64,000 nucleotides of DNA. Origin: Thermodesulfobacteriota bacterium (GTDB lineage: Bacteria; Desulfobacterota; Binatia; Bin18). Of the stretch, positions 1,864 through 62,432 are shown one piece after another. Position 1 is the first letter of the stretch. Every line of letters starts with the position of its first letter. The translations under genes and the position numbers were made by a program. The notes beneath the pieces are model-generated. The model worked only from the letters and a program-made list of their open reading frames with translations, did no database searches and was not told the DNA's origin. The stretch lies in contig OZ219926.1 of NCBI GenBank assembly GCA_964291405.2, positions 896,001 through 960,000 of the forward strand, written 5' to 3'.

Positions 1864-1885
1864 GGAGGCGACCCGACAGCGTCGC

Positions 1886-36064: not shown

Positions 36065-36074
36065 TCATTATTCT

Positions 36075-40733: not shown

Positions 40734-42008
40734 TCAGCTTCTCGGAGCTGCTGTCGCTGACACGGCCCTTGAGTCCCTCTCCTCAACACCGCTTGCGACC
40801 CGCATCATCAGCCCCACCGTGGCCCACCACACCAGCCCGACTTCCGCATCCCCCCAGTTATACTGGGTCAGGCCGCCAATCAGAAAACCGACCAGGCCGA
40901 GCCAGCAGCCCAGGGTCAGGCTTCTCAGCGGCTCGGTCCGTTGTCTCACATAGGCACGCCAGCCCGTCATGATAATCGAGCCGACCAGGAAGAGAAAGGC
41001 CGCCAGACCGAGCAGGCCGGCATCCACCCACATCTGGAGGAAATTATTGTGCGCATGGGCATCGGTGTCGGCCCGAGGATAGCGCTGATAAAAAGCCTCC
41101 CGAAACTGCTTATAGTTCCCAAACCCCCAGCCGGTCAGGGGTCGCTCTTTGATCATATCGATATTGGCCAACCAGATCTGACTGCGCCCGATATTGGCCT
41201 CAAAGTCAAAGATCGAGAGCCCCCGTTCGCGCACCCCCTGTCCGGCACCGACAAAGAGCAGACCACACACCGCCACCCCCCCAACCACGGCCAGCACGGC
41301 GCGACGGCCCTGTACCAGCCCATACACCACCAGCACCACGCCATAGGCGACCCAGACGCCACGCGTGAGGGAGAAGAACAGGGCAAGCAGCATAAGCGCC
41401 CACCCCCCGACCAGCAGGAGGCGCTGCGCTTTTAGGAGCCCAGGGGACAATCCCCAGGCGGTGATCAGGCACAGCGGAAAGAGCAGGGCATGAGCATAGG
41501 TCATCCCGGACGGATGCAGCCCCTTTACCCGGTAGCCCTCCTGGCGGCCGAACCAGAACGGGTCGAGGTTGGACTCCTTGCCGACCAGGGTTTTGGCCAG
41601 ATCAAGCCCGGTAAAGTGCTGCACAATGCTGTAGGCCGCAACCGCTCCGGCTACCCAGAGCGCCACGGTCAACACTGTTTCTACTTCCCGCCCGTTGCGG
41701 ACGAGTACAAAGACCGCCAGACAGCCGCCCATGAGCCACATTTTCCGATAGCCGATGAAGGACTGAAGCGGGTCGGGGCTCAGAACGGTTGAGACCAGAA
41801 GCGCACCGAAAAAAAAGAGGAAGGGTTGCCACAGCGGCACGCGGGGCAGAGAGCGGGTCCGCCACAGCGTATAGCCGAGAAAGGCCAGCAGACAGCCCAG
41901 CGCGGTTTGCTGAAAGGCGATGGGTAAATTCCAGGTTGCAAAGAACAGCACGAGCAGGCCGGCCCGCAGAGTGTCGTCCCACCGCTGAGGTTGTATCAGG
42001 GCCGGCAC
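40734..42008 (-). CDS. O-antigen ligase (WaaL/Wzy_C) family protein
   Basis: Polytopic membrane protein; SLTRG, GWGFGNY, HAHNNFLQ. Confidence 0.9.
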   Translation of the reverse strand: MPALIQPQRWDDTLRAGLLVLFFATWNLPIAFQQTALGCLLAFLGYTLWRTRSLPRVPLWQPFLFFFGALLVSTVLSPDPLQSFIGYRKMWLMGGCLAVFVLVRNGREVETVLTVALWVAGAVAAYSIVQHFTGLDLAKTLVGKESNLDPFWFGRQEGYRVKGLHPSGMTYAHALLFPLCLITAWGLSPGLLKAQRLLLVGGWALMLLALFFSLTRGVWVAYGVVLVVYGLVQGRRAVLAVVGGVAVCGLLFVGAGQGVRERGLSIFDFEANIGRSQIWLANIDMIKERPLTGWGFGNYKQFREAFYQRYPRADTDAHAHNNFLQMWVDAGLLGLAAFLFLVGSIIMTGWRAYVRQRTEPLRSLTLGCWLGLVGFLIGGLTQYNWGDAEVGLVWWATVGLMMRVASGVEERDSRAVSATAAPRS

Positions 42009-42018
42009 AATCCGAATC

Positions 42019-43461
42019 CTATACGCCTCGCCGGGTCAGGATGACCTTGACCGTCTCCGTCAAGACGCGGACATCCAGCCACAGCGAATAATTATAGATA
42101 TAGGCCAGGTCGTATTTCAGCTTGTACTCGGGCGTCGTGTGGTATTCGCCATTGACCTGGGCCAGGCCGGTCAGGCCCGGCTTGACCTGCAAGCGTTCCG
42201 CATAACCGGGAACCGTCTGTTGAAACCCGGCCACAAACTCGGGCCGCTCCGGGCGGGGACCAACCAGACTCATGGACCCGTTGAGGACATTGAAAAGCTG
42301 CGGGATTTCGTCAATCCGGCTGGCCCGCAACAGGCGACCGACCGGCGTCACCCGGCTGTCGTCCGAGCGCGCCAGCACCGGCCCGGTCCGGGCCTCGGCC
42401 TCATGGACCATGGTGCGCAGTTTATACAGGGTGAACTCTTTTCCATGCCGCCCCACCCGACGCTGCCGGTACAGCATCGGTCCTGACGATGAGAGTTTGA
42501 CCAGGCAGGCGGCCACACCCACCAACGGCAAACACAGGACCAGCAGGACGCCGGCAATCAGACGATCGCTGATACTTTTCACCATAAAGGCCAGCTCTTC
42601 ACGCGGATTCTTCAGCACCTCGACCAGGGGCACATCGTGCAGGCGCAGGGACGAAACCCGTCCCACCAGAATGTCGTACACGGAGGGCACCACCAGGACG
42701 CGCGGCCGTTCAGCCGCCAGGTGACCGGTCGGCAGATTCAACAGCCGGTCAACAAACGTATCCTTCCAACTGGCGGACGACAGGAGAATGACCTCATCGA
42801 TCTCGACCTGTTCGAGGACCTGGGGCAGACTGTCCAGCCTGCCCAGCCACGGGATACCAACCTCTTCTTGTGTCTGACAGGCGGATTCCTCCAACCCGAT
42901 TGCGCCAACAACATCGAGGCCGGGAGACGGGCGGAGGTCCGTCAGACTGGAGAGAAACATCCGCACATCCCGCACCAGACCGATCAGGAGGACGCGCACC
43001 GGGCTGGCGTGTCCGAGGCGATGGTCCGCCCAGAGTCGTACGCCAACAATGCCAAGGGTGTTAAACACCCAAAAGACCACCAGCACGGAGCGCGGGAAGG
43101 AGAGGTCACCGCGAAAGAAATACCAGGCCGCGGTGGCCAGCAGTTGGATGCCGAGGGCCATCGCTACCCGCGTCACCAACCGGATACGCTGGTGCAGGGA
43201 ATGCTGATCGTACAAGCCGAAGAAATAGAGCAGTACCACCTGCGTTCCCAGGAGAAAAAACAGAGGATGGGCAACCTCGGTGAGACGCGAGGCCGGCAGG
43301 AAATCCGCGGTCAGGGGAAAAGGCAGATAGACGCGCAGGGAAAAGGCGCTCCCATACGCAATGCCGGCCCACACCAGGTCGGCCAGCACCAGCAGCAGAA
43401 CGATCTGATCATCTCTTCGGGGAGATCGTCCTTGCGTTCCGGACGGGGGTACGGGTTTCAC
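42019..43461 (-). CDS. polyprenyl glycosylphosphotransferase (WcaJ/WbaP-like initiating sugar transferase)
   Basis: YKLRTM, RIDEIPQLFNVL.G.MSLVGPRPE, KPGLTGLAQV. GTG 43461 overlaps the upstream stop codon. Confidence 0.93.
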   Translation of the reverse strand: MKPVPPSGTQGRSPRRDDQIVLLLVLADLVWAGIAYGSAFSLRVYLPFPLTADFLPASRLTEVAHPLFFLLGTQVVLLYFFGLYDQHSLHQRIRLVTRVAMALGIQLLATAAWYFFRGDLSFPRSVLVVFWVFNTLGIVGVRLWADHRLGHASPVRVLLIGLVRDVRMFLSSLTDLRPSPGLDVVGAIGLEESACQTQEEVGIPWLGRLDSLPQVLEQVEIDEVILLSSASWKDTFVDRLLNLPTGHLAAERPRVLVVPSVYDILVGRVSSLRLHDVPLVEVLKNPREELAFMVKSISDRLIAGVLLVLCLPLVGVAACLVKLSSSGPMLYRQRRVGRHGKEFTLYKLRTMVHEAEARTGPVLARSDDSRVTPVGRLLRASRIDEIPQLFNVLNGSMSLVGPRPERPEFVAGFQQTVPGYAERLQVKPGLTGLAQVNGEYHTTPEYKLKYDLAYIYNYSLWLDVRVLTETVKVILTRRGV

Positions 43462-44278
43462 AGTGTATCGCTCTCCCTCGGGGCGTTTGGAAATCGCGCG
43501 TACAGCGCCCGACGAGAGACTATATACCGATGCTTCCAAAAGTAGTAGGCAAGGCCACGCAGATGTTTCCAGCCCAGGCGCGAGAACGCGGAGCGGGCAA
43601 TACGTTGCTCGGCGTGCGTCACTACCGCGGCCGGCTGGTAGACTACCTGCCAGCCGGCTTGGTGCATGCGCAGACACAGATCAATATCTTCCGGACCGTA
43701 AAAAATCCGTTCGTCCAGCAGGCCGACCTCATCCAGCGCCCGCCGGCGTATGAGTTGGCAGGCGCCAATCATATAGTCCACCGGCCGTAGCGTATCGTGC
43801 GCCCAGTCCGCCAACTCGGCCTGCCGGGCCGCGCGGCGCGTGAGCGCGGACGGAAAACGACGTCCGAGTTTGTCCAGGAGGGTCGGAAACAAACGGCACG
43901 ACAGACACAGCTGCCCCTCGGCATCTACGAGTTTCGGCCCGCACAGGCCAACCTCCGGCCTGGAGTCAAGCAGTTGAACGAGTTGGTCCAAGGCGGTGGG
44001 ATGCACAATCGTATCGTCATCCAGGATGAGGATGTATTCTCCCTGCACGCATACCGGATACCCTGATTCCGCGCGGGCGCAACCCCGCGGTTTTTTCGAT
44101 TCGCAATAATACGGACGTAGGGAAAGCGCCTTCTCAACACCGACACCGTCCGATCCCGTGAGCCGTTATCAACCACAATCACCTCATAGCTGACCGTCAA
44201 ACCGGCGGGTAACGAGTCCAGACAGGCTTCAATCGTAGACGCGGAATTCCAGACCAGGATGATAATCGAGACCTTCAT
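43458..44278 (-). pseudogene. GT2 glycosyltransferase split by a frameshift near 44048
   Basis: MKVSIIILVWNS...GVAPARNQGIRYA in one frame; QGEYILILDDD...GACQL..FYGPEDIDLC in another. Confidence 0.8.
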
Positions 44279-45351
44279 TGTTGAGCCCCAGACTGTCCAA
44301 ACGGTCGAGACGAGGCTGGGGTCGATGCCTGAGCCGCTACGGACCAGCGTTTAGTCGACACAAAGGGCCGGTATAAACTGTAGAAACCGGCCCGTTTGAG
44401 GCGTCTCCAGGCCCACAGCCTGGCCAGACCACGAATGCCCAGGGCCAACAGGATCAGCCCATACTCACGTATCCGCATAGTGCGGAAGAACTCGGCCCAG
44501 GGATACGCCGCGACCGGACCGTTTGCGAGCAGGTGCGCGTGCTGGCGGCGAATCTGCATTTTGCCGCCCTCGGCCCGTACCCGCTCGGCAAAATAATCCC
44601 GCCACGTCTGTGGCAGAACAAAAAACACCTGAGCCTGCATCACTTTACGCACACGCTGTTTTCCGACCGCAACCGTCAGCCAGGCATCTTCCAGCAGCAA
44701 GTCTTCCGGCATGGGCTCGCTCAGCACATTTTTGCGTATCAGGAAGAGGCGGCCGCCGGCATTGCCGAAGTTAAATCGATACGGCAGTGCGCCCATACGA
44801 CTCCAGATACCCGTCTTTGGCTCCAGCATCGGGACTTCACGCGCGGCAACCAGCCCCAACTGCGGCTCCGTCCGCATACGCGCGTATAAACGAGCAATGG
44901 CCTGCGTATCAATGCGGACATCGGCATCACAGAACAGGAGCAGGTCGCCGCACGCCCATTGCCACAAGGCATTCATGGCTCGGGGTTTCCCCCGCCAGTC
45001 TGCCAGCAGCACGCGACACGTCAATGCTCCCTGCCCCTCAGCCCCCGGAGAAGACGGATACGGTGTATGCGTTTGCGCCTGCTCTGCGGAGGAGAGCGTA
45101 ATCTCCCGGAGCGATATGGCGTGACGCGTACAAAAATCCCGGACCGCCAGCAGTGGCGGGCAGGCCCTTCGACTCGGCTCAGGACAGGGCCGGTCCGGGC
45201 CGACCCCGTTAATACAGACGAGCAGTTCCCGGACACAGCCGGACGGAAGCCGGGGAGACAGACTGGCCACCAACAGGCTCTCCAGCGTGCTGCCCAGGTC
45301 CGGTTCATCCGCCCGGCACGGAATAGTCAGCGAGAGTGTTTCGTCAGTCAT
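44275..45351 (-). CDS. GT2-like glycosyltransferase
   Basis: IPC..DE, GKPRAMN, FCDADV, GRLF, EDAWL; contains an in-frame palindrome insertion. Confidence 0.8.
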   Translation of the reverse strand: MTDETLSLTIPCRADEPDLGSTLESLLVASLSPRLPSGCVRELLVCINGVGPDRPCPEPSRRACPPLLAVRDFCTRHAISLREITLSSAEQAQTHTPYPSSPGAEGQGALTCRVLLADWRGKPRAMNALWQWACGDLLLFCDADVRIDTQAIARLYARMRTEPQLGLVAAREVPMLEPKTGIWSRMGALPYRFNFGNAGGRLFLIRKNVLSEPMPEDLLLEDAWLTVAVGKQRVRKVMQAQVFFVLPQTWRDYFAERVRAEGGKMQIRRQHAHLLANGPVAAYPWAEFFRTMRIREYGLILLALGIRGLARLWAWRRLKRAGFYSLYRPFVSTKRWSVAAQASTPASSRPFGQSGAQQ

Positions 45352-45526
45352 CGCAAGAAAGAAGGATCGACCATGTTGGGTACAGCGTTGCGGTTAATGT
45401 AACATATCGGTCAACCAGAACCGGTGGCTCCGACGCCTATCAATTTTTCTCGTCACCGACGTGTCGTTTCGCTCTCGTCATGTCGGACGTAAGCCGGCAT
45501 CAATGACGGTGGGAAGGCGCCGCCGC

Positions 45527-45940
45527 TTAGTGCAGCACTTCGAATGCGAGCCGGCGACCGCGTCCGTATCGGAAGACGGAAAAATCGTTGTCGAATGAGA
45601 TAACACGCGAGATGCCGAGCCGTTCCATGAGCGCAAAGGAGGTGCGATCAACGAGGGAGAAATCCTGGTCGGGGAAGCGTTCGCCGATTGCCCACGCGGC
45701 TTCGAGGTCTGCACTGGTCGTCTGTTCAATGCGTGCGACACCGCTGCGCAGCCCACCCCAAAAGGTTTCCGCCACACTGGCCGAGATGAAATGGTGGATG
45801 AGACGCCACGTCTCAATCAGTACATGGTCACTCGTGATCAGCCGTTCGTCCGTTGTCAGAAGTCGCTTGGCACGAACGTTCTGGCGGTCGCCACGGTCAG
45901 CCGCAGCATACCAGGCCGAGCTGTCCACAAAGATACTCAT
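45527..45940 (-). CDS. vapC: PIN-domain toxin (VapC family)
   Basis: IFVDSSAW, E, SLVDRTSF..M, SFDNDF. Confidence 0.9.
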   Translation of the reverse strand: MSIFVDSSAWYAAADRGDRQNVRAKRLLTTDERLITSDHVLIETWRLIHHFISASVAETFWGGLRSGVARIEQTTSADLEAAWAIGERFPDQDFSLVDRTSFALMERLGISRVISFDNDFSVFRYGRGRRLAFEVLH

Positions 45941-46197
45941 GGCGCATCGGAACGGCGCCGCTTCCCGGCGCCAACCGCCTCTCCGATCATCCGCGCTTTC
46001 TCTGATGCGATATCGGTCCCTTCCGAGGTGCCGAGGTCGAAGACGATGGACCGGTCAACGCGGCGGGGGGATTCGGCCAAGTCCTGATTCACGAGTTGGC
46101 GTATGTACTCGGCAAGAGAAATGTTCAGAGCGGCTGCACGCACACGAACTCGTGTATGCAGCTCCGAACTGAGGGAGATCTGGGTACGAATCATCAT
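45937..46197 (-). CDS. ribbon-helix-helix antitoxin (VapB-like)
   Basis: MIRTQISL...SLAEYIRQLV; ATGA overlap with the PIN gene. Confidence 0.8.
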   Translation of the reverse strand: MMIRTQISLSSELHTRVRVRAAALNISLAEYIRQLVNQDLAESPRRVDRSIVFDLGTSEGTDIASEKARMIGEAVGAGKRRRSDAP

Positions 46198-46244
46198 TGT
46201 GGCGCCACCATACAGGCATCCGAACAGGGTTTCAAGCGATAGGA

Positions 46245-46396
46245 TAGGGTCCCGAATCTGAAGTTCGTGGCATAAGTAGTGCTCGACCCGGTGACAGAAT
46301 CGTTTGACGGCCGCGAGGATATCGGCGGCGGACTTCGTCCATATGAAGGGTTTCGGGTCGGCGTTGCAGGCGTCGCTGAACGCGCGGATGATCGCC
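46245..46396 (-). mobile_element. IS630-family remnant (transposase C-terminus and right end)
   Basis: AIIRAF...NADPKPFIWTKSAADILAAVKRFC is a typical IS630 transposase C-terminus; the end reads GAACTTCAGATTCGGGACCCTA. Confidence 0.8.
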
Positions 46397-46449
46397 CTCC
46401 CAGGCAGCGCGGGGGCCGGGAGGGCAGAGGCGTGGGGGAGAGCGGCCCA

Positions 46450-47805
46450 TCAGTGCAAAAGACGCCGATAGTGTTGCTCAAGCAGGGCGACGTCTGCGCT
46501 AATCGATCTGACCGCCGGGAATGCTCGTGAGAGCCGGGCGACCAAATCCGGTTCGGTAATAAAACGCATCATCTTTTGACGCAGGTCATCAATATTACGC
46601 GGCTGAAACAGGAGTCCGTTTACGCCGTCCCTTACCCACTCGCGCATGCCGCCAAAGTCGGCGGTGATCACAGGAGTGTGGGCCAGAAAGGCCTCCCGAA
46701 TCACCAGTGGAGCATTTTCATACCAGATTGAAGGCACGACGACGACATCCACCTCAGCCAGAATGCGACTGAGCTCATGCTGTTCGTAACGACCCATACA
46801 CCGGATACGGGGCGAGCTGGCCAACTGGGAGCGGAAACGTTTCTCGTCCGGATAGGGCGCATAGGCCGCCTCCCCGCCATAGATACGCAGTTCCGCCCGG
46901 GGCAGGGTCTGAAAGGCTTCGACCAGCAGATGGACGCCCTTCACCGGGTCAACAACACCGATATAGCCGAAAATAAGGGGCCGCTTGTCTCCGTTTTTCT
47001 GAGGAATAAGAGCTCTCGGAGCGGGCTGAATGGCGTCGGTCTGCAAGCCACACTCGTGAAACAGAACCTTCTCTTCCGGCAGCCCAAAAGCCACAAACTG
47101 CTCGCGCAGGAAGCGCGACGGCGCCAAAAACAGCGAAACCGACTCACACAGCGCCCGAATATGGGCCATCCGGGCCTGAATCTGTTGCCGAGCCGCGAGC
47201 GAGACGGACTGGGAACCGGCCCGTTTACCATACCAACGCCGCGCCTGCTCTCTGAGCCAGGATTGTTGACCCAGGAGCGGTTTCAGCCAGCGATAGAGGG
47301 TTGACATCTTTGGATCGAGCAAATGGTGGAAACACCGGGCGCAGCCGGCGTCGGTCTGGCCGGGACAGACCGACAAGTCGGGTTTCAGAAACCGGCCGCG
47401 CTGGCAGACGAGCCAGTAGTCATGCAGCGTCATCACCACCGGAATCCGGCGCTGGGCCGCTTCTCGCACGCACGTTGTGGACAGGTAGACCAGATGCTGA
47501 AAATGGACAATGTCGGGCTGGAAACGATCCAACACCTCGCCAAAGCGGGTAGCAATGGCGTCGTTTTGATAACTGTCCACAAAGCTCGTGCTCTGCCGCA
47601 GGGTATTATTGATACGCGTGATCTCAACCTGGTCGGCCGTCGTTGTTTCCACCTCGTACTCAGGCTGCCTTGTGTTTTCACGCCGCGCAAAAACCGAGAC
47701 GGTATGACCCTGGCCCGCCAGCTCTTGGGCAAGAGCGGCGGCGTAGGTTTCGGTCCCTCCCAGATATTCCGGCGGTAAACCGTTGACGACCTGGACAATA
47801 CGCAT
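46450..47805 (-). CDS. GT4 family glycosyltransferase
   Basis: PP...GG.E, TLHDYW..C, KGV..L, PSIWYENAPLVIREA. Confidence 0.93.
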   Translation of the reverse strand: MRIVQVVNGLPPEYLGGTETYAAALAQELAGQGHTVSVFARRENTRQPEYEVETTTADQVEITRINNTLRQSTSFVDSYQNDAIATRFGEVLDRFQPDIVHFQHLVYLSTTCVREAAQRRIPVVMTLHDYWLVCQRGRFLKPDLSVCPGQTDAGCARCFHHLLDPKMSTLYRWLKPLLGQQSWLREQARRWYGKRAGSQSVSLAARQQIQARMAHIRALCESVSLFLAPSRFLREQFVAFGLPEEKVLFHECGLQTDAIQPAPRALIPQKNGDKRPLIFGYIGVVDPVKGVHLLVEAFQTLPRAELRIYGGEAAYAPYPDEKRFRSQLASSPRIRCMGRYEQHELSRILAEVDVVVVPSIWYENAPLVIREAFLAHTPVITADFGGMREWVRDGVNGLLFQPRNIDDLRQKMMRFITEPDLVARLSRAFPAVRSISADVALLEQHYRRLLH

Positions 47806-47995
47806 TTTCTACAGACTCTTTCAGCCGTCTCTTTCCATCCAAAGAGAGCCTTTCTTCCATGTACCTATACTCACTCTTTGAGGAAAGAGCCCTCTTGCCC
47901 TTGCCATTGAGAAAACAACGAGGATCAGTTATTACGAGTATGTTACATGTATATGAAAGCTATATGAATCGTGTGACATAGGGAGGGAACAACAC

Positions 47996-48262
47996 GTGCG
48001 CCGACTTGGATATCTTATCCTCATTGTCTTTTTCCTTAGTCTGACAGCCCCTTCTGTGGCCTTTGCCTATCTTGACCCGGGCAGTGGTAGCATGCTGCTC
48101 CAGCTCGTCCTTGGCGGACTGGCCGGCCTGGCAGTGATCGCTAAGCTCTACTGGCATCGACTGCTCGCCCTCTTTGGTACGCATTCCCAACAGGAGGAAA
48201 ACGATTCGGAAATGGATTCGACCTCCCTCACGACCTCAGATTCATCTGATACCCCACAGTAG
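47996..48262 (+). CDS. small signal-peptide plus TM protein with YLDPG motif
   Basis: GGAGG RBS and GTG start; signal peptide ending AFA, then YLDPGSGS, one TM helix and an acidic tail. Confidence 0.8.
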   Translation: MRRLGYLILIVFFLSLTAPSVAFAYLDPGSGSMLLQLVLGGLAGLAVIAKLYWHRLLALFGTHSQQEENDSEMDSTSLTTSDSSDTPQ

Positions 48263-48326
48263 ATTCGAAGAGAGCGGACAAGAGCAGCCCCGTCTTTCCT
48301 TTTCGCCTGTCCAGACTCATATCAGC

Positions 48327-49748
48327 ATGGTTGTCCCCCATTTCGAGCCGGGTTCATTCCGTGACCGCACCAGCCGGGTCTTTTACCAGGACGGAACGGT
48401 TCTGCGCGGCATTAATGCACCTGCCGTCCAGGAGTGGGAAGTCCTCAAGACCAAGCCGTTTTTCCAACAATTCATGGCCGAAGGGAAAATTGTCCGAACC
48501 GATCAGGTCACACCCATAGACGTCTCACCCTCGCCCCATACCGGGCAATGGAGTGAGCACTGGTCCATTGTTCTCAAACACCAAACCATTCCGTTTATTT
48601 CTTATCCCTACGAGTGGCCCTTCAGCATGCTCCAGGACGCCGCCCGGCTGACCCTCGAACTCCAGGCCGCGGCCCTGAATGCCGACATGACGCTCAAAGA
48701 CGCCACCCCTTTCAACGTCCAGTGGTCCGGCAGCCAGCCGGTCTTTATTGATATTCCCTCGTTCGAGCGTCTACGGCCCGGCGACCCGTGGGTCGGTTAT
48801 CGCCAGTTCTGTCAGTTGTTTCTCTATCCACTCTTTCTGCAAGCCTACAAAGATATACCCTTTCAGCCCTGGCTGCGCGGCAATCTGGAAGGCATTGAGC
48901 CAGCCCAGTGCGCCCAACTCATGTCGTTCAGAGATATGTTCAGACCGGGCGTGCTGTCGCACGTCGTTCTCCAGGCCAAAGCCCAAGCCTCGTACGCCCA
49001 GACAGAGCGTAATCTCAAGAAAGATTTACGTCAGGCCGGTTTCCATAAGGCACTCATCCAGGCCAATGTCGGTCGTCTTCAAAAACAGCTAGCCCAATTG
49101 ACCTGGAAGCAGTCGCGGTCAACCTGGTCAGATTACACCGAAGCCCTCCCCTACACGGAAAGTGAACAACACCAGAAGGCCGATTTTGTGCAACGCATCA
49201 CCCACTCTCAACGCTGGCATCTGGTCTGGGACCTGGGCTGCAATACCGGGACGTTTTCGCGCATTACCGCAGAAAACGCTGAATACGTGCTGGCAATGGA
49301 CATCGACACTCTGGTGATCGAGCGACTCTATTGCGCTCTCAAGCAAGAACAATCGAGTAATATTCTGCCCCTTATCGGCAATGTGGCCGATCCTGCTCCA
49401 AATCTTGGCTGGCGTGGGCTGGAACGGAAGGCGCTGGTTGAACGTGGCAAGCCCGACCTGACCTTATGTCTGGCCTTGCTCCACCATGTGGTTATCGGTG
49501 CGCATATTCCGCTCAGAGAGTTCATCACCTGGCTGGCGAGTCTCGACACGGCCCTAGTGATTGAGTTCGTTACCCGGGACGACCCCATGGTCCAGACCCT
49601 GCTGCGGCATAAGGCCGATCACTATACGGACTATGACCTGGGGTATTTCGAGCGCTGTCTGGCTGATGCGTTTGAGATTGACCAGCAAGAGCCGCTCGAA
49701 TCAGGCACACGCATACTCTACTACGCGCGGAGCAAACGCCAAGTGTGA
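48327..49748 (+). CDS. NoeA-like protein: kinase-like N-domain plus class I SAM methyltransferase
   Basis: PGSFRD, ISYPYEW, LKDATPFN and FID in the N-half; WDLGCNTG and LALLHH in the C-half. Confidence 0.82.
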   Translation: MVVPHFEPGSFRDRTSRVFYQDGTVLRGINAPAVQEWEVLKTKPFFQQFMAEGKIVRTDQVTPIDVSPSPHTGQWSEHWSIVLKHQTIPFISYPYEWPFSMLQDAARLTLELQAAALNADMTLKDATPFNVQWSGSQPVFIDIPSFERLRPGDPWVGYRQFCQLFLYPLFLQAYKDIPFQPWLRGNLEGIEPAQCAQLMSFRDMFRPGVLSHVVLQAKAQASYAQTERNLKKDLRQAGFHKALIQANVGRLQKQLAQLTWKQSRSTWSDYTEALPYTESEQHQKADFVQRITHSQRWHLVWDLGCNTGTFSRITAENAEYVLAMDIDTLVIERLYCALKQEQSSNILPLIGNVADPAPNLGWRGLERKALVERGKPDLTLCLALLHHVVIGAHIPLREFITWLASLDTALVIEFVTRDDPMVQTLLRHKADHYTDYDLGYFERCLADAFEIDQQEPLESGTRILYYARSKRQV

Positions 49749-49760
49749 GACGACAGGGAT

Positions 49761-51959
49761 ATGGGTCTCACACCTCAAGCTCTCCCCCCTCATAGGACGA
49801 AAGCGGACTTTCTTTTTCCCGGCCTGCACCTCCTTGTCCTGTGGAACTTTGCGGTCGCCCAGCCACTCTTTGATCTCTTCTCCCGCACCGCGGAATTCTT
49901 TGTCCTGCGTCAGTCGCCAGCGCTTGACATCGTCCTGTTCACCATCCTCCTGAGTGTTGTTGTTCCGGCTCTGGGCATACTTGTTGTCTGGGGAATCCGC
50001 GTCGTTGGTGCCTGGCTGAGCACAGGGCTGCATGTGCTCCTGGTCGGGGGATTATCTGCTATGCTCGCTCTCCAGGCATTGCAGATGCTCCAGACACTTC
50101 CCCATATTTCGGGCGTCGTCCTGATGCTCGGAGCTGGCGGGGTCGGGCTGCTCGCGAGCGTCGGCTATCATATGCTGCCTCTGGTCCGAACATTCTGTAC
50201 GCTCCTCTCACCCGGCATCGTGCTCTTCCCGACTCTCTTTCTCTTCTTCTCTCCGATCTCAACGCTGCTGTTCTCGTCACCCGTTGATATTGCCCAGGTG
50301 AAGATCAACGACCCGCCACCCATCGTGCTGGTGATCTTTGATGAGTTTTCATCAATCTCCCTCATGAATGAAAACCGTCAGATAGATGCTGAGCGCTATC
50401 CGAATTTTGCCGCACTTGCAGAAGACGCAACCTGGTTCCGTAATGCCTCGACCATGAGCAGTTGGACTCCCGCGGCGGTCCCGGCCATTTTAACGGGCAG
50501 CTATCCGATTCCGAATCGGCTCCCAACCGCATCCGGATATCCGCGTAATATCTTCACCCTGCTCGGCGGGACCTATGCCGTCCAGGCCCACGGCACTATT
50601 ACGGAATTATGCCCGCATGCATTATGCAACCAGCTCCGAGAGCCCTGGAGTGTCCGTATGCGGACACTCTTTTCTGATGTCGGCATCGTCTATCTGCACA
50701 TTCTCCTGCCGGAAGATCAGAAATCCGCTCTGCCTTCGCTCCAGGCCCGCTGGAGAGATTTTGCCGGCGTCCCTGCCCTGTTATCCCCGGCTGAGGAGCG
50801 TCAGATTCCCGCTGACGTATGGAAATCTCTCCAAGATTCGATTCTGGCACAGTTGGACCTACGCCTGGACCGGCCCCAGATATTTCACAGTTTTCTCCAC
50901 ACCATTCGACCGACACACCAACCGACACTGTACTATCTGCATATTCTTTTGCCCCACGTTCCTTATGAGTATCTTCGGGCAGGCCAAACCTACAGTGTAG
51001 ATGGTGGCCATCCCGGAATCACGAAAGAAATTTGGAGCGGTGATGTATGGGCCACTACTCAGAGCTATCAGCGTTATTTACTCCAAGTAGAATTTGTAGA
51101 CACTCTCGTAGGGCAGTTAATCGCTCACCTGAAATCGGCGCGACTATACGAAAAATCGCTGATTGTCATTACGGCCGATCACGGAGTCAGCTTTCGTCCG
51201 CACGACAACAGGCGACTTGTCACAAAAACGAATTTTGCCGACATTATGGCTGTCCCCCTCTTTGTCAAGGCACCTTTTCAGCAGCAGGGCGAAGTTCTTG
51301 ATCGCAATATGGAAACCATCGATATCCTGCCGACCATAGCGGATATCCTGGAAATCAAGCTGCCCTGGCCAGTTGACGGTGGCTCGGCATTTTCGCCCGA
51401 ACCACGAGCAGGAACCGAGAAAGCGTCTTCTCTTTCTACCCAAATCGCCCTGGATCGATTCAACACTGCGGTCCGGGAAGCGGTCAGCAAACAGGCCGAC
51501 CTATTCCCACCCGCTAACCCGGTCGTGCCCCACGCTTCACCTCTGGCTCTCGTCGGACAACCTATCCAGGATATGTCTCTGAGTGAGGATGCCCAATTTG
51601 CAATCACGATCGATCAATTAAAACATTTTGCTCAGATCGATCCGGAGGCCCAGTTTCTCCCTGCCCACATCACCGGCACGCTCCACTCGGAAGAATTCAG
51701 ATTCATCGCCCTGGCGTTGAATGGAACCGTGCGGGCTATCACACAGCCCTGGTCCTTTGCCGTCAAAGAAAAACACGGACGGTGGTCGGCATTGCTTGAC
51801 CCGCAATTTTTTCGGGCGGGCAAAAATACGATTGAAGCCTTTGGAGTGAGAACACCGAACGACCAGGCAACCCTCATCCGTGCAGCAGGGTCACCTCAGC
51901 ACCTGTCTGTATTCCAGCCACGAGTTGAAGAGCACAACGACTTGCAAAAAGAGGAATAA
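49761..51959 (+). CDS. membrane-anchored alkaline-phosphatase-superfamily (sulfatase-like/LTA-synthase-like) transferase
   Basis: About 5 N-terminal TM helices; FDE, WTPAAVPAILTG, LPHVPY, ITADHG, VPLFVK, IDILPTI. Confidence 0.85.
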   Translation: MGLTPQALPPHRTKADFLFPGLHLLVLWNFAVAQPLFDLFSRTAEFFVLRQSPALDIVLFTILLSVVVPALGILVVWGIRVVGAWLSTGLHVLLVGGLSAMLALQALQMLQTLPHISGVVLMLGAGGVGLLASVGYHMLPLVRTFCTLLSPGIVLFPTLFLFFSPISTLLFSSPVDIAQVKINDPPPIVLVIFDEFSSISLMNENRQIDAERYPNFAALAEDATWFRNASTMSSWTPAAVPAILTGSYPIPNRLPTASGYPRNIFTLLGGTYAVQAHGTITELCPHALCNQLREPWSVRMRTLFSDVGIVYLHILLPEDQKSALPSLQARWRDFAGVPALLSPAEERQIPADVWKSLQDSILAQLDLRLDRPQIFHSFLHTIRPTHQPTLYYLHILLPHVPYEYLRAGQTYSVDGGHPGITKEIWSGDVWATTQSYQRYLLQVEFVDTLVGQLIAHLKSARLYEKSLIVITADHGVSFRPHDNRRLVTKTNFADIMAVPLFVKAPFQQQGEVLDRNMETIDILPTIADILEIKLPWPVDGGSAFSPEPRAGTEKASSLSTQIALDRFNTAVREAVSKQADLFPPANPVVPHASPLALVGQPIQDMSLSEDAQFAITIDQLKHFAQIDPEAQFLPAHITGTLHSEEFRFIALALNGTVRAITQPWSFAVKEKHGRWSALLDPQFFRAGKNTIEAFGVRTPNDQATLIRAAGSPQHLSVFQPRVEEHNDLQKEE

Positions 51960-55614: not shown

Positions 55615-56304
55615 CTACGATCGAACAGACAGCCGCACCGTATGCGCATTGCCGTTCCAGCTCGGCGCTCCAGCTTCATAACGGAACCCGGCCACTTCAC
55701 ACATGGCTCTGAGGGCCTCAGCCGTCGGCAGCCACCACCAGGGGCCGAAATCCTCAAAGCTCCACTCCGCCACCTCCTGCGTGATGCCGAACGCCCCATC
55801 GCCGACAACGCCCTGCCAATACGCTTGGACAATCTCACGCTCGCGGCCGTGTAAAGCCGGAATACACAGCATGGCCGCGGCGGGCAGCTCAAGAACCCCT
55901 TTTGCTCCTTCAATCCGAGTCGCGGTGATCGCCGAGGTAAGGACGAGAGCCTCGCGGGTTACCTTGCGTAAGGCGCGTAAAAACTGCATCGGCTCGGGCA
56001 TGTGATACAGCACCCCGGAGCAGTGCACGACATCGAACTGCGGGCAGGGGTCCGCCTCGGCCAAGGTCAGAATGTCCGTGCTCATACACTCAACCCCTGG
56101 CAGCCGGAGCGTGCGCCGCCGTTCATCAAATAACGCCCACAGCTCGCTGTCGGGCGGTGAGACATCAATCATGGTCAGCACGCGCGCGCCGTGCGCATGG
56201 GCAACCGAGACCTTCTCATTGACCGTCCCCCACAGCCCACCAACATCGGCAAACGATTTGCCGGCCACAACCTGACTAATATACGTATCCCGCACATCTC
56301 TCAT
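55615..56304 (-). CDS. class I SAM-dependent methyltransferase
   Basis: FADVGG, FDVVHCSGVLYH.P.P...L, WWWLP. Confidence 0.85.
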   Translation of the reverse strand: MRDVRDTYISQVVAGKSFADVGGLWGTVNEKVSVAHAHGARVLTMIDVSPPDSELWALFDERRRTLRLPGVECMSTDILTLAEADPCPQFDVVHCSGVLYHMPEPMQFLRALRKVTREALVLTSAITATRIEGAKGVLELPAAAMLCIPALHGREREIVQAYWQGVVGDGAFGITQEVAEWSFEDFGPWWWLPTAEALRAMCEVAGFRYEAGAPSWNGNAHTVRLSVRS

Positions 56305-58631
56305 GGAGTGCCCTCACGCAGCAAGCGCCGTTTGAGACGATTTTTCAGGGATAACAGCCACGGCCGGTTGGTCTTGAGCAGGGCGGTATAGAGCGGCAAG
56401 AACATCCGACGGACCGAAAAATACAACACCGTCCGCCAGGAGTGGCCATACGCGGCAACGAGATGGGCCGGTATCAAGCTCGTTCCGGCATCCACCCTTT
56501 GTTCAGCTCCCTGCTCCCGTTCTTGCCAGAGCCAGTCCGTCACGGTTGTGATCCGCAGATATTCTACGGCTTGCGTTGCACAGGCGCGCCCGAGGCCAAC
56601 TCCGGGCAGCGGTGCGGTTGCCGCTGCCCGTTCCTGTCGCGCGGCTTCGTAGGCCGCCAGAACAGTGTCGGTCATCTGCTCCAGCCGGAAGTGATCCTGA
56701 ATACGTTGACGCCCCTGTTGGCCCATGCTCTTCCGTTGCCCCGGCTCGTCCAGGAGTTGAGCCAGGACGGTGGCGTACTGCCGGGCTTCGTCTTCTTCCG
56801 ATCCCCGGCCAATCAATACCCCACATTCAGGCGTGACCAGCTCACGCTGCCCGCTCACATCTGCTCCGACAACCGGCACCCCGCAGGCCATAGCTTCGTA
56901 GACTGAGAGCGCTATGCCTTCCCATTCGGAGGGGAGAAAAAAGATGTCCGCGGCAGCAAGAAGGTCCCGAATATCATCATTGGGTAGTGCGCCGAGCAAG
57001 CGAACCTGTCGCTCCAACCTGTTCTTATGGATAAAGGTTTTGAGCCAGTCAAAATCCGGTCCATCGCCGGCAACCATAAGCACGAAATCAGCGTTGGTTT
57101 GGGTGAGGCGGAGTGCTGTCTGCGCCAGGACTTTCGGTTGTTTTTGCGCACATATACGCCCGACAAATACAATCAGCGGCGTTGAGGCGGCAATATCGTA
57201 GTGCTGACGGGCACGATGACCCCGCTCAGCGTCGGGCTGCCACGAGTCGGCGTCGATATTCGTATGACATACCTGGATAGTGGCCGGGTCGGCGCCCCGC
57301 CCTACCATCCAGCCTTTCAGATGTTCCGACGAAACCAAGCTGCGATCAAGCGTTTCCTGGTAGATAACCGACATCTGCGGATAACCGCCATTCTTCCACG
57401 ATTCCTCCTCAATATGACAAAAATCGAGCAAAGGCAGCTTTGGACAATGTGCCCGCAGGTAGGGCAGGATATGATACCCGAACTCGCTATGCGAGGTGAG
57501 CACCGCATCGATCTCTCTGCTCTGTATCAGATAGCGCAGAAAACGCGGATAATCCGCGGGCCGCAGAAAACGGTGCAAAATAAAAATATCGGGCGTAAAG
57601 TCGGCAAACTGGGCCAGCCAGGGATGATCGCTACTGAGCGTCGTCACGATGGTCACTTCCCAGCCGCGCCGGACGAGTTGACCGAGCAGGTCCAGGTTGA
57701 ACTTGTCCGACCCACCCATGGCCAGCCACGGCACGATCAGTAGCAGCCGTGGCTTTTCCTTGTGGAGTCGATTCTCCCACGGGAGCGTATCACAGACGGT
57801 TTCATACGGTGCGAGCGGCGCTGCCTGGGGCGTGGGAAACTCCTCCCAGAGACGCGGGTAGCGCTGGCGCAATTTTTTCCGAAAGGCGGCCTCGCGCTTC
57901 CCGCCATCCCAGTTATCCCAGCGGTCCCCGTGGTTCTTGCGGCGGCGGTACCAGTCGAGATACTCCGGTAGCGTCGTGCCCCAATGGCCCTCGCTGGCGC
58001 AGTGCAGCCAGAAGTCCCAGTCTTCCAGCCCGCCCCGGATCGTTTCGTCATAGCCGCCGACGGCGGTATGCACGCTGCGCCGCACCGCGCTGGTGATATC
58101 CACAAGATTCTGTTCAAGAAAAACACCACCGTTGTGGAAGCCCTGCTCCCACAGGTACTCGTTGGCATCGAAGCCAACCGAGTAGCCCTTCACAAACGCG
58201 AATTCGGGATAGGACTCCAACAGCCAGATCCATTTTTCTATGGCGGTCGGCTCCAGCATATTATCCGTATCGAGCTGGACGATATACTCTGCACGCGCGG
58301 CCCGATACGCCGTATTCCGTCCGGCGCTGGGCCCCTGGTTGACCTCATGGTCAATCACCCGAATCCTTGTATCTGTGTTACGGTAGGAATCGAGAATAGC
58401 CAGCGCTTCCGGGTCGGTCGAGCCGTCGTTGACGATAATCCACTCCCACTGCTGGAAAGACTGCCGCAGGACGGACCGCGCCGTGTCATGAAAAATCGCG
58501 CCGGTATTGTAATACGGCGTCACGATGGTCACGACCGGCGGAGCGGCCGGATCGACCGGACGATACCCATAGACCGGACGCCGGTCCGAGGCCGGGGTGT
58601 TCGCGTAATCGGGACTGTTGGGATCAATCAT
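56301..58631 (-). CDS. bifunctional GT2-GT4 glycosyltransferase
   Basis: N-half TPYYN, NDGSTD, LDTDN, EDWDFW; C-half GGSDKF, VGR...QK.P, PSEWEG...YEAMACG. Confidence 0.92.
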   Translation of the reverse strand: MIDPNSPDYANTPASDRRPVYGYRPVDPAAPPVVTIVTPYYNTGAIFHDTARSVLRQSFQQWEWIIVNDGSTDPEALAILDSYRNTDTRIRVIDHEVNQGPSAGRNTAYRAARAEYIVQLDTDNMLEPTAIEKWIWLLESYPEFAFVKGYSVGFDANEYLWEQGFHNGGVFLEQNLVDITSAVRRSVHTAVGGYDETIRGGLEDWDFWLHCASEGHWGTTLPEYLDWYRRRKNHGDRWDNWDGGKREAAFRKKLRQRYPRLWEEFPTPQAAPLAPYETVCDTLPWENRLHKEKPRLLLIVPWLAMGGSDKFNLDLLGQLVRRGWEVTIVTTLSSDHPWLAQFADFTPDIFILHRFLRPADYPRFLRYLIQSREIDAVLTSHSEFGYHILPYLRAHCPKLPLLDFCHIEEESWKNGGYPQMSVIYQETLDRSLVSSEHLKGWMVGRGADPATIQVCHTNIDADSWQPDAERGHRARQHYDIAASTPLIVFVGRICAQKQPKVLAQTALRLTQTNADFVLMVAGDGPDFDWLKTFIHKNRLERQVRLLGALPNDDIRDLLAAADIFFLPSEWEGIALSVYEAMACGVPVVGADVSGQRELVTPECGVLIGRGSEEDEARQYATVLAQLLDEPGQRKSMGQQGRQRIQDHFRLEQMTDTVLAAYEAARQERAAATAPLPGVGLGRACATQAVEYLRITTVTDWLWQEREQGAEQRVDAGTSLIPAHLVAAYGHSWRTVLYFSVRRMFLPLYTALLKTNRPWLLSLKNRLKRRLLREGTP

Positions 58632-61374
58632 TGTTTCTACTTTGGCCGGCTACTTTGGCCGGAAATCCCTGGACCGGCTTGACCAGTTTCATCCGGGTGC
58701 CCAAGCGGCCCCACACACTCTCTTGCCAGTAGCGTGTCTGTGCCTGCCAGTGGGCGATCTGTTCCTCGTGCTGCCGAGCAATTTTCTCCCAGTTACTCCG
58801 CTGCTCCTCCAGCCACGCCTTCCCCTGCTCCAACTCGCCCATCCATGCCTGTTGCTCCTGTAATACTCGCCCACGTTCCTCGGCTAACGCCTGCCAATTC
58901 TTCCTCTGTTCTTCTTGCCACGCCTTCCCCTGCTCCAACTCGTCCATCCATGCCTGTTGCGTAGCCCGCTGCTCTTCCAGCCACGTTTTGCCTGTTTCGA
59001 GCTCTTTTATCCAACCCCTGAGTTCTTGAATCAAATCGTTCTGGGTCTCGGCAACACTCCGCCAATTGGCCTGTTGGGCTTCTTGCCACGCCTTCCCCTG
59101 CTCCAACTCACCTATCCACGCCTGTTGCGCAGCCTGTTGTTCTTCTTGCCACGTTTTGCCTGTTTCGAGCTCTTTTATCCAACCCCTGAGTTCTTGAATC
59201 AAATCGTTCTGGGTCTCGACAACACTCCGCCAATTGGCCTGCTGAGCTTCTTGCCAGGCTTTGCCACGTTCCAATTCACTAATCCAGCGGCGGAGCTTGG
59301 TCAGCGTGCTGAAGGCTTCACCCAGCACGCGGCCTTCGGACTGCGAGCCCCGGTCTTGAGAGAGTGAGAGTGCACGACGACCGGCTTCAGTGATTTCCTC
59401 TACACCACGCTCAAACTGGTAGGCGTGCGAGGCGTTACCGCCGTGCCAGCGGTAGCGGACCAGGGGACGGGCCAGAAAGCCAACCCGATAGGTGAGGCAT
59501 AGCCTGAGCCACATGGCATAGTCACAGGCAAAGCCCAGGTCCGGGTCAAACCCACCCTGTTCGAGCAGGACACGGCGCCGAGCCAGCACGGTCGGCGCAC
59601 ACACCCGGTTGCCGTTGAGGAGCAAGGTCCGAAAATACTCCGGCCCACCCCAGACCGTGTCTTCAGTCGCGTCCTCAATCCAGTCGGCAAACGAGCTTGG
59701 CGCCGACTCGTCAACCAGCGTTTCCACCCCGGAATGGACAAAACCGACGGTTTCGTCCGTGCTCAACAGTTGGACCTTGCGTTCCAGATTGTCGGGCAGC
59801 ATCACATCGTCCTGGTGAAAGACGCACACGAACTCTCCACCGGCGAGTTCAAGACAGCGGTTCCAATTGGCCGGAATACCCAGCCGCTCCGGGTTGCGGT
59901 GTATCTGTATTCTCGGGTCAGAGAACGACTTGACGATATCGAGCGTGGCGTCGGTTGAATGATCATCAACAACCAGGAGTTCAAAGTCCTCATAGGTCTG
60001 GTTCAAAATGCTGTGCAGCGCCTCTTCAATATAATCCGCGCCGTTATACGTGGGCAGGCACACGCTGACCGCACGGGTCGGTGTCAGCCTCTCCGCTTCC
60101 GTTGAGAGAGCATCAGGACGCGGGCCTTCTTCCGACGGCTTGTCCCCCCGCACGGCCTCATATACGGCTTCCATATCCTGGGCGTACACCTGCGGGTCTC
60201 GCATTGGCGTCGCGGCCGGCGTGAGCTGTTCCCGCAGCCGGGTGTCGGTCTGCAGCCGCTCCAGGCAACGCCGCAGGTCGCCTGCGTTCTCGGGTTCAAA
60301 CAACAGACCGTTCACTCCATCCTGAATGACTTCAGGTAATGCCCCACGCCTGGTGGCAATGACCGGCAGACCGGCCTGAAGCGCCTCTCGGGTGACCAGC
60401 GAAAAGGTTTCCTCACAGAGGCTGGGTACAACCAGCACGTCGTGCTGAGTCAGAATGGCGTTCAACTGATCGTGCGTATAGGTGCCACAAAAACGAATGG
60501 GGAGACCGACCGCATCCGCCTCCAGTTGGTCAGCATAGGCAGACCAGGCCGCGGCCCGTTCACCATACAGGGAGACGGTAAGGCTAGCAGCCGGCATGCC
60601 GCGCACGGCTTGTAGAATCAGCTGTGGGCCTTTGTGTGGCACGAGCGCACCAATATATAACACCCGCAGCCGCCCGTCCTTGCGGTCGTCTTGGCGTCTC
60701 TGCTGGATGGGTATGACGCCAGGGGCAAGTATCTGGAGACGAGGCTCCAGAAATGGGAACAGGTGAGACATGCGGTCAGCCAGAAACCGGGACGGCACAA
60801 TAACCCGTTGCGGGATGCGGAGGAGTTGCTCAAAATACCGAAAACGCCGGCGGACCTCCTCCGCAGTTGTCTCCGTATGTAAGCAAGCGACGCAGCGCTC
60901 GCCCCGGTCCGGCCCCGGACACAGCCGGCTGTGGTTGTCCACGAGATGGATGCGGGCACAGGCGAAAAAGAAATCGTGCAGGCTAAGGACGACCGGATAA
61001 CCCAGCAGGGCCGAGGACTGGAGCACACTCCCGGACAGATGGATGACGTGCTGAACGTGCACGACATCGGGACGAGAGTCGGTCAGGACCTGGTGAAATG
61101 CCTCGTCGAGAAATGGATGGTCATACTCCAGGCGAAAATGTGAGGCGTGGCTGAGATTGTTGACAACCCGCACAACGCGCACCCCAGAGTGTCCATCCGT
61201 ATCAGAGGGGTCTTGTTGCACTGAGAATTCCGCGGCAGCGGCATCGGTTGTCCGGGCGAAGACCGTCACCTGATGACCTCGCTGGGCGAGCGTCTGAGCC
61301 AGAGTTGCGGTGACGAATTCCACCCCTCCCCACTTTCGGGGCGGGTAGCCGTGCACGATCTGGAGAATGCGCAT
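58624..61374 (-). CDS. GT4-GT2 glycosyltransferase with C-terminal Trp-rich coiled-coil repeats
   Basis: GT4 motifs (SLHDF, PSLCEETFSLVTREA), GT2 motifs (PTYNG, DDHSTD, HQDD), then six W..ELE.GK.W repeats. Confidence 0.92.
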   Translation of the reverse strand: MRILQIVHGYPPRKWGGVEFVTATLAQTLAQRGHQVTVFARTTDAAAAEFSVQQDPSDTDGHSGVRVVRVVNNLSHASHFRLEYDHPFLDEAFHQVLTDSRPDVVHVQHVIHLSGSVLQSSALLGYPVVLSLHDFFFACARIHLVDNHSRLCPGPDRGERCVACLHTETTAEEVRRRFRYFEQLLRIPQRVIVPSRFLADRMSHLFPFLEPRLQILAPGVIPIQQRRQDDRKDGRLRVLYIGALVPHKGPQLILQAVRGMPAASLTVSLYGERAAAWSAYADQLEADAVGLPIRFCGTYTHDQLNAILTQHDVLVVPSLCEETFSLVTREALQAGLPVIATRRGALPEVIQDGVNGLLFEPENAGDLRRCLERLQTDTRLREQLTPAATPMRDPQVYAQDMEAVYEAVRGDKPSEEGPRPDALSTEAERLTPTRAVSVCLPTYNGADYIEEALHSILNQTYEDFELLVVDDHSTDATLDIVKSFSDPRIQIHRNPERLGIPANWNRCLELAGGEFVCVFHQDDVMLPDNLERKVQLLSTDETVGFVHSGVETLVDESAPSSFADWIEDATEDTVWGGPEYFRTLLLNGNRVCAPTVLARRRVLLEQGGFDPDLGFACDYAMWLRLCLTYRVGFLARPLVRYRWHGGNASHAYQFERGVEEITEAGRRALSLSQDRGSQSEGRVLGEAFSTLTKLRRWISELERGKAWQEAQQANWRSVVETQNDLIQELRGWIKELETGKTWQEEQQAAQQAWIGELEQGKAWQEAQQANWRSVAETQNDLIQELRGWIKELETGKTWLEEQRATQQAWMDELEQGKAWQEEQRKNWQALAEERGRVLQEQQAWMGELEQGKAWLEEQRSNWEKIARQHEEQIAHWQAQTRYWQESVWGRLGTRMKLVKPVQGFPAKVAGQSRNND
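58760..59295 (-). repeat. coding tandem repeats of 21 and 35 codons including a 168-bp duplication
   Basis: Blocks starting at 58981 and 59149 are almost identical over about 100 bp. Confidence 0.9.
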
Positions 61375-61381
61375 AGACCGT

Positions 61382-62347: not shown

Positions 62348-62364
62348 AACGTCTGGAAAATAGC

Positions 62365-62430
62365 TGCGCCCGCTCCCCTACATCCCCTCTCGGGAGGGGT
62401 GGCCCGCAGGGCCGGGGTGGGTTCCCCAGC
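62365..62430. repeat. REP-like palindrome (CCCCTCTCGGGAGGGG...GGCCCGCAGGGCCGGGGTGG)
   Basis: Short GC-rich hairpins between genes; related sequences near 4185-4215 and 20180-20210. Confidence 0.6.
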
Positions 62431-62432
62431 CG

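Follow-up and report, generated by a model that had tools for sequence, protein, structure and literature searches.

A noeA-noeB-type cassette with an overlooked YLDPG microprotein in a glycan locus of a Binatia bacterium, a candidate system for methyl-phosphate decoration

The window analyzed here, a stretch of 64,000 nucleotides from a Thermodesulfobacteriota bacterium (assembly GCA_964291405.2, contig OZ219926.1, positions 896,001 to 960,000), contains a three-gene cassette on the plus strand of a glycan locus. It encodes a microprotein with a YLDPG motif, a homologue of NoeA and a membrane enzyme of the NoeB type. Judged by sequence comparison, the trio represents another noeA-noeB system, in which these two genes are joined by a microprotein that has been overlooked. 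The cassette comprises the following features (positions are those of the window):

47982..47986, plus strand: Shine-Dalgarno-like GGAGG, 9 bases 5' of the GTG of gene 1, read from the sequence
47996-48262, plus strand: gene 1, YLDPG microprotein, 88 residues, GTG start; segments by hydropathy
48068-48070, plus strand: codon of Tyr25 in gene 1, read from the sequence
48327-49748, plus strand: gene 2, NoeA homologue, 473 residues, ATG start; identified by homology and a 97-sequence alignment
49761-51959, plus strand: gene 3, NoeB-type membrane enzyme, 732 residues; PF00884 match with E 1.2e-22
50466-50468, plus strand: codon of T236 in gene 3, read from the sequence

An earlier note on this DNA had described three plus-strand genes here with the motifs AFA|YLDPGSGS, LKDATPFN, FID, DLGCNTG and WTPAAVP, all of which are present. 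The listed open reading frame (ORF) of gene 2 opens at TTG 48174; the alignment of near relatives begins at ATG 48327, most likely the true start. The 4.95-Mb genome has one copy of each of them. The nearest named relatives belong to Candidatus Binatia, with gene 2 being 81-92% identical.

Gene 2 is identified as a NoeA homologue by 33% identity with the annotated NoeA from Sinorhizobium meliloti over 97% length (E 3e-65). An N-terminal kinase-like region, containing LKDATPFN and FID, is followed by a class I S-adenosylmethionine (SAM) methyltransferase domain (about residues 264-472) with DLGCNTG and no C-terminal extension. Hydropathy shows a single internal hydrophobic stretch and no membrane anchor of its own. 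In the 97-sequence alignment, R27, D125, N130, D142, a GxNxG motif and H386/H387 are invariant, and the first four are the equivalents of K72, D166, N171 and D184 in PKA when assigned after PMC9758233. The profile built from this alignment was compared with solved structures, and the top four entries are all WbdD (E 4e-6 to 1.1e-4), while the next unrelated entry follows at 1.1e-3. H386/H387 align with the His pair in the LSVFHH motif of WbdD, which corresponds to H132/H133 when the 13-residue offset between the entries is counted. In WbdD these residues are reported to bind phosphate and to be essential for the methylation step (PMC3482155). Another stretch, weaker at 4.3 bits, pairs the DxxxxN and D motifs of gene 2 with the kinase loop of WbdD. 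Outside the printed alignment, R462, kept in at least 90% of the sequences, and the invariant Y270 are positional candidates for WbdD Arg203 and Tyr16. The match to WbdD including the two essential histidines points to a methyl-phosphate product. The likeness to WbdD from Escherichia coli O9a drawn in the earlier note extends to the methyltransferase with its phosphate-binding His pair; the two systems have in common a kinase domain, predicted in the case of gene 2, a SAM methyltransferase, the His-His phosphate site and, as far as can be predicted, the product class. Gene 2 differs from WbdD in the opposite domain order, with the kinase-like region first, in the lack of a coiled coil and in having a microprotein and an outward-facing enzyme as partners. 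An alignment-based AlphaFold2 model of gene 2 reached a pLDDT (predicted local distance difference test) of 94.9, compared with 35.2 for a single-sequence run, and fold searches with this model gave Z values of 17.5 for the 7SK methylphosphate capping enzyme, 16.6 for BCDIN3D, 16.2 for DhpI and 15.7 for WbdD. The kinase fold is predicted on the basis of the motifs and a published model (PMC9758233).

The sequence of gene 3 lacks the sulfatase signature C/S-x-P-x-R and reads T-P-A-A-V-P within WTPAAVP. At least four membrane helices (four hydropathy segments, residues 57-171) precede the catalytic domain, whose catalytic and metal residues are D194, T236, H394, H399, D473 and H474, and a C-terminal accessory region follows. 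A broad alignment of neighbor proteins contains 90 membrane-type sequences, in which position T236 is taken by Thr in 83, Ser in six, a gap in one and Cys in none; the remaining residues are conserved in 84 (D194), 85 (H394), 88 (H399), 86 (D473) and 83 (H474). These residues support the earlier statement that gene 3 does not encode a formylglycine sulfatase. NoeB from S. meliloti matches the broad gene-3 profile with E 5e-56, although direct similarity between gene 3 and NoeB is low (18% in the aligned core), and gene 3 is on this basis assigned as a NoeB-type enzyme with a Thr nucleophile. With EptA/MCR, LtaS and OpgB it shares a membrane domain, an alkaline-phosphatase (AlkP)-superfamily domain with predicted Thr nucleophile and a DHG motif, but it scores far below the curated cut-offs for LtaS (31.6 of 970 bits) and EptA (11.4 of 561). 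EptA/MCR, LtaS and OpgB need neither a microprotein nor a dedicated loader. An AlkP fold has been predicted for Lani_1195/NoeB (PMC9758233), and EptA is the published HHpred match of NoeB (PMC9758233 supplement 6).

Among 14 Binatia-titled loci with a direct downstream copy of gene 3 (L001-L011, L013, L014 and L016), this gene is 42-46% identical in ten and 70-81% in four, while identity of gene 2 stays at 81-92% among L001-L011 and L016. Since gene 3 alone is exchanged between these relatives, the pattern suggests that gene 3 chooses the acceptor. In Solirubrobacterales-type loci (L019-L024 and L027), a single noeA is surrounded by two to three paralogues of gene 3 and by several genuine sulfatases with Cys.

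The gene 1 product consists of a signal-peptide-like segment (residues 1-24), Tyr25, Asp27, a membrane helix (33-51), a basic amphipathic stretch and a variable acidic tail, with hydrophobic segments placed at 6-24 and 33-51 by the hydropathy scan. Cleavage may occur after AFA, as read from the AFA|YLDPGSGS motif. No Pfam or NCBIfam family matches gene 1, and the ESM Atlas returned unnamed hypothetical clusters only (0.91-0.92). We found 310 relatives, and conservation (79 of 80 loci, see below, and the 310 relatives) rules out a chance ORF; the microprotein is a real, unnamed family. Its helix has a face of small residues, and the basic amphipathic stretch is conserved. Literature searches, which did not cover subscription journals, returned no account of the YLDPG motif, its fusions or its chemistry.

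The signal peptide claimed for gene 1 is matched by the signal-peptide-like segment ending in AFA, but it is not a property of the whole family. Read by eye, a leader of about 24 residues is present in 26 of 79 relatives and absent from the other 53, nearly all of them Actinomycetota by title, where the start lies 2-8 codons before the Tyr. Most Binatia relatives have a start with a Shine-Dalgarno-like site 24 codons ahead of the Tyr. Versions in L231, L237 and L086 appear leaderless and begin with Met-Tyr; a freed N-terminal Tyr is ruled out as a family-wide need by such starts and by the 53 relatives without signal peptide. From the basic residues that follow the helix we infer that the motif faces outside in both forms. 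The microprotein occurs in 27 of 401 genomes of its own phylum and in 66 of 301 genomes of the phylum of G401, 38 of these 66 having been read and each set including one false match; the matches in G291 and G421 lie inside unrelated ORFs and were rejected.

The genes noeA and noeB are host-range genes hypothesized to modify Nod factors (PMC9048898, PMC4053727). The nod-box n5 operon nodL-noeA-noeB of S. meliloti shares with our cassette not only NoeA and NoeB but also the microprotein. A 71-codon gene with the motif AHA|YLDPGTGS is located between nodL and noeA (L081:4748-4963, pSymA; also H42, strain 1021) and its product matches gene 1 in hhalign with 98.4%. It is annotated as hypothetical or unlisted and constitutes a fourth gene of the operon, for which supplement 6 of PMC9758233 lists NodL, NoeA and NoeB only. 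The microprotein and noeA reside on equal numbers of plasmid records (57 Sinorhizobium, three Rhizobium and one Ensifer). The source cassette differs from the S. meliloti operon in the absence of nodL, in its location in a surface-glycan locus instead of behind a nod box and in gene 3, which represents a subfamily distant from NoeB and has a C-terminal extension. The cited papers regard NoeA and NoeB as possible modifiers of Nod factors in the cytoplasm, a role that fits poorly with the predicted outward-facing domain of NoeB. The Lani_1194 family, to which NoeA belongs, was described computationally in 2022 as kinase-methyltransferases with Arg in place of the catalytic Lys and is spread over more than a thousand species (PMC9758233). 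Two neighbors are present in 65% and 38% of 816 neighborhoods and were called likely effectors; for one of them, Lani_1193, that paper gives no role or motif (PMC9758233). The gene 2 locus has the same traits, a small gene upstream and an AlkP-fold gene nearby, and from size and place we infer that Lani_1193 is the YLDPG microprotein. The earlier note had used noeA/noeB for comparison; the relation exists and goes beyond analogy, the cassette being a copy of the noeAB system from a family already described.

Co-occurrence of the three genes, predicted earlier, is found in other genomes. Of 80 genome loci anchored on gene 2, 79 have the microprotein gene next to it and 75 contain a tblastn match to gene 3, one of these being a fragment of 50 residues only. 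In the reverse test, noeA is adjacent in 66 of 80 microprotein-anchored metagenome loci; eight of the remaining 14 break off within some 310 bases, and in the other six no noeA is seen over at least 500 bases. The microprotein and noeA are often seen without gene 3 nearby. Where gene 3 is not adjacent, a close full-length copy resides elsewhere in 11 of 14 genomes and in none of six comparison genomes. Conversely, ten genomes were chosen because their microprotein match has no noeA next to it; NoeA is present in eight of them, in one case split, and the two misses are G108 and the false match in G421. Both sets of numbers are to be taken as tallies, not as statistics, since related genomes are not independent. 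NoeA is almost always accompanied by the microprotein, whose Tyr is invariant, which supports the earlier view of the microprotein as an obligatory partner, with the restriction that it is almost obligatory. A Binatia copy at L018:7865-8828 combines an intact microprotein with a gene 2 lacking its N-terminal half and a 50-residue remnant of gene 3, and G110, a 100% complete genome of the same genus, has no match to any of the three gene queries.

The cassette is flanked on both sides by genes for glycan synthesis:

40734..47805, minus strand: left flank, with O-antigen-ligase-like, sugar-phosphate transferase-like and GT2 (glycosyltransferase family 2) genes and one GT4 gene divergent from the cassette
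55615..63266, minus strand: right flank, with methyltransferases and GT2/GT4 glycosyltransferases

The Binatia relatives carry their cassette in the same glycan locus, with a GT4 gene pointing away from it, and the left flank is kept in most of them; this flank is probably the source of the acceptor. In relative L003 it is swapped for genes that open like an FlhA/SctV export-gate protein (441-2549, minus strand, by eye). The description of the locus as otherwise minus-strand is mostly right but does not hold for a toxin-antitoxin-like pair at 53795-54712, a PIN-domain gene (PF01850) and a small upstream gene, which occupies the plus strand within this locus. Another PIN-like ORF and an ORF resembling a helix-turn-helix antitoxin, both judged by eye, are located on the minus strand at 45527-45940 and 35613-36068. 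A minus-strand ORF of 712 codons (52057-54195) has no Pfam or NCBIfam match; an 82% relative occupies the same place in L018.

The microprotein is not restricted to systems with NoeA. Apart from the source genome, 27 matches were found in its own phylum, of which 15 are beside noeA, two beside a noeB-like gene only, one is false and nine occur with PF01663, the microprotein either directly preceding or being fused to a phosphodiesterase-type protein. The phosphodiesterase-type proteins of such loci (L221:9-2192, L173, L210, L211, L213, L215, L216, L220 and L223) mostly feature an RRxFLK-like N-terminus. NoeA was not found in seven of the nine genomes (90-99% complete), and three loci of this type contain a gene for adenosine 5'-phosphosulfate (APS) kinase or sulfotransferase. 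In L145 (1331-5581) and L105 the microprotein gene is followed by a PF00685 sulfotransferase gene on the opposite strand, with no adjacent noeA, and in L145 and L122 it lies near a close gene-3 relative, again with no adjacent noeA; L145, L105 and L122 represent one lineage.

A search for long proteins containing the microprotein, in which 7998 candidates were scored, yielded 23 matches: eight fusions to TagF-like domains, five to PF01663, one to a NoeB-like enzyme, one probable read-through, one with a DUF4118-like region and seven long or mis-called microproteins. P0133 has an internal start, probably reflects read-through and was rejected as a true fusion; no match to the TagF fusion was found among plasmids. 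The TagF-like subfamily is present in three of 401 own-phylum genomes, each time together with the microprotein. G108 has the TagF-like gene in unfused form, next to phosphonate genes and a gene resembling noeB. In G343 and G177 it is fused, and the operon consists, in this order, of genes for a cytidylyltransferase-choline kinase, the microprotein-TagF fusion and a YidC-AlkP fusion; NoeA was not found there. Operons of this arrangement are:

L264:7435-12790: cytidylyltransferase-choline kinase, microprotein-TagF, YidC-AlkP
L265:7150-12719: the same arrangement

From its gene content this operon is a candidate phosphocholine decoration system. The YidC-AlkP protein comprises 846 residues and combines a YidC domain, which matches PF02096 with 66.6 bits, with an AlkP domain. 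Of its 66 relatives, 60 are full-length, with Thr (57) or Ser (3) as nucleophile and DH kept; Phe, Ser and Ala are the commonest residues at the site which we take to be the position of the conserved Arg in YidC. G343 has a normal YidC in addition. Unfused TagF-like genes of the same subfamily also lie near the microprotein gene in L169 (3356-11028) and L244 (2695-7677), L169 featuring additional genes for phosphoenolpyruvate mutase, a thiamine pyrophosphate enzyme and an iron alcohol dehydrogenase that probably form a phosphonate route. Neither flippases nor lipid-carrier enzymes are a recurring component of the cassettes read. Because the microprotein serves NoeA-free systems and occurs in varied fusions, the constant parts thus appear to be the microprotein, with its outer Tyr-x-Asp on a helix, and an outward AlkP-superfamily transferase, with an exchangeable cytoplasmic loader.

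Which reaction could such a system catalyze? Methyl-phosphate on an envelope glycan is the probable product, and it follows from two different readings of the microprotein. In the one that we prefer, though tentatively and with somewhat less than an even chance of its being right, the invariant Tyr is a covalent phosphoryl carrier. NoeA would phosphorylate and then methylate this Tyr on the cytoplasmic side, the charged microprotein would cross to the outer side of the membrane, and there its methyl-phosphate would be taken over by the Thr of the NoeB-type enzyme and passed to a surface glycan, probably the product of the flanking locus. For translocation, the source genome would rely on the general Sec/YidC machinery and the TagF-type variant on a YidC-like domain dedicated to it. 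A Tyr hydroxyl would be the simplest link because the variable cytoplasmic enzyme transfers a phosphoryl group to a hydroxyl, and aryl phosphodiesters serve well as donors. The choice of Tyr is suggested by its invariance together with Asp, whereas both Ser/Thr positions vary: in 203 distinct profile hits Tyr is found in 201 (two gaps), a count partly favored by the profile used for choosing the hits, and Asp in all 203, while the Ser/Thr positions are kept in 186 and 185. Ser was ruled out as the key residue by this variability. Fusions of the microprotein to cytoplasmic TagF-like (8 of 23) and outward AlkP-superfamily domains (6 of 23) and the appearance of a protein insertase, not a flippase, in one variant are likewise in line with a carrier. 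A precedent for the chemistry is DltX, a membrane microprotein whose Tyr is a proven acyl shuttle (PMC12148441). In DltX/DltB/DltD and PatA/PatB, a membrane microprotein or a fused motif provides an invariant outer Tyr that acts between loading and unloading enzymes (PMC12148441); the cassette would be arranged in the same way, its outer Tyr being read from the sequence. The likeness is one of layout with no homology seen; in contrast to DltX, the Tyr is N-terminal, a phosphoryl instead of an acyl group would be transferred and there is no MBOAT channel. The C-terminal FXYXXF motif of DltX and its MBOAT and SGNH partners do not occur in the cassette, and in one variant the YidC-like domain may take the place of the MBOAT channel.

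Several observations weigh against a Tyr carrier. The Tyr is predicted to end up outside and the NoeA and TagF-like domains in the cytoplasm, so that each carrier would have to serve only once or the peptide would have to re-enter. We know of no precedent for either, and single use is hard to accept and unlikely where the motif is fused to enzymes of 426-741 residues. WbdD acts on a sugar, and LtaS and EptA use lipid donors. None of the 23 long matches is a fusion of the microprotein with NoeA; the source genome has a single, normal YidC, and G108, G012 and G689 have one each as well. L229 (6012 region), a relative found independently of the profile, has His instead of Tyr. As for the loader, the earlier designation of gene 2 as a kinase-methyltransferase holds for the methyltransferase and for the invariant kinase-like motifs, and the model of the whole protein is a confident one, but all rows listed in the fold searches cover the C-terminal methyltransferase domain, phosphate methyltransferases including WbdD tie there with unrelated methyltransferases, and the 97 NoeA sequences have no kinase family among their listed Pfam matches, which comprise 25 of 33 families.

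The topology difficulty disappears if the product of NoeA is a methyl-phosphodiester attached to a lipid such as diacylglycerol or polyprenol and is then used by the NoeB-type enzyme for the same end product. The microprotein would in this case be a structural subunit tying the cytoplasmic enzyme to the membrane and docking the outward enzyme via YLD. We consider this rather unlikely but a serious contender: fusions to inner as well as outer enzymes suit a bridging subunit that is not consumed, the small-residue helix face and the basic amphipathic stretch suggest packing and anchoring, NoeA lacks a membrane anchor of its own, and NoeB-type enzymes share the layout of EptA and LtaS with a membrane domain and a Thr domain. 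Left unexplained are the YidC-like insertase domain that the outward enzyme of the TagF-type variant carries and the phosphodiesterase-type partners with at most one membrane segment, and no recurring lipid-handling gene belongs to the cassette. It is improbable that NoeA caps a lipid-linked glycan in the cytoplasm in the manner of WbdD, its closest solved relative, with the NoeB-type enzyme moving or trimming the cap outside and the microprotein as anchor or regulator. The location within a glycosyltransferase locus and the frequent pairing of microprotein and NoeA with no gene 3 nearby would agree with such capping, but the constancy of NoeA beside a variable gene 3 would place acceptor choice in gene 3, non-adjacent copies of gene 3 turned up elsewhere in most of the genomes concerned, and the conserved part of the microprotein is its outer motif. 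Very unlikely, finally, is a gene 3 product that works as a hydrolase, i.e., as a sulfatase or phosphodiesterase, with the genes linked for regulation or recycling and not for transfer. The best solved-structure sequence matches of gene 3 are indeed phosphonate monoester hydrolases and sulfatases, and genes for APS kinase or sulfotransferase are present in some NoeA-free loci. These structural matches are, however, limited to the shared C-terminal core, the 90 membrane-type relatives have neither Cys nor C/S-x-P-x-R, and the fold can serve synthesis: in a haloarchaeon, sulfatase-like proteins are required for glycan sulfation (PMC11980604).

Returning to the Tyr as carrier, it is conceivable, if rather speculative, that the YLDPG microprotein represents a modular way of decorating glycans. 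Swappable loaders would charge the Tyr, namely NoeA with methyl-phosphate, TagF-like enzymes with phosphocholine or phosphonate and perhaps a sulfotransferase with sulfate, an insertase, in one variant a dedicated YidC-like domain, would bring the charged peptide through the membrane and so replace a lipid carrier, and an AlkP-superfamily enzyme would unload the group onto glycans. Rhizobial noeA/noeB would be one case of this scheme.

The kinase-methyltransferase family and its two neighbors were known before (PMC9758233). New are the match of the NoeA profile to the WbdD phosphate methyltransferase including the essential histidines, the microprotein in NoeA-free systems and its fusions to TagF-like, phosphodiesterase and NoeB-like enzymes, and the two TagF-type operons with an outward YidC-like-AlkP enzyme after a choline kinase-cytidylyltransferase gene. 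For noeA and noeB, host-range genes since 1995 without assigned reaction, a methyl-phosphodiester is now a named candidate product, and the comparative evidence renders both the product and the role of the microprotein directly testable. If the Tyr is indeed a carrier, tyrosine shuttling would be extended from acyl to phosphoryl groups and a YidC-like domain would serve surface chemistry instead of protein biogenesis. If the microprotein only bridges the two enzymes, a widespread unnamed subunit would still be defined and three unstudied gene sets would be linked.

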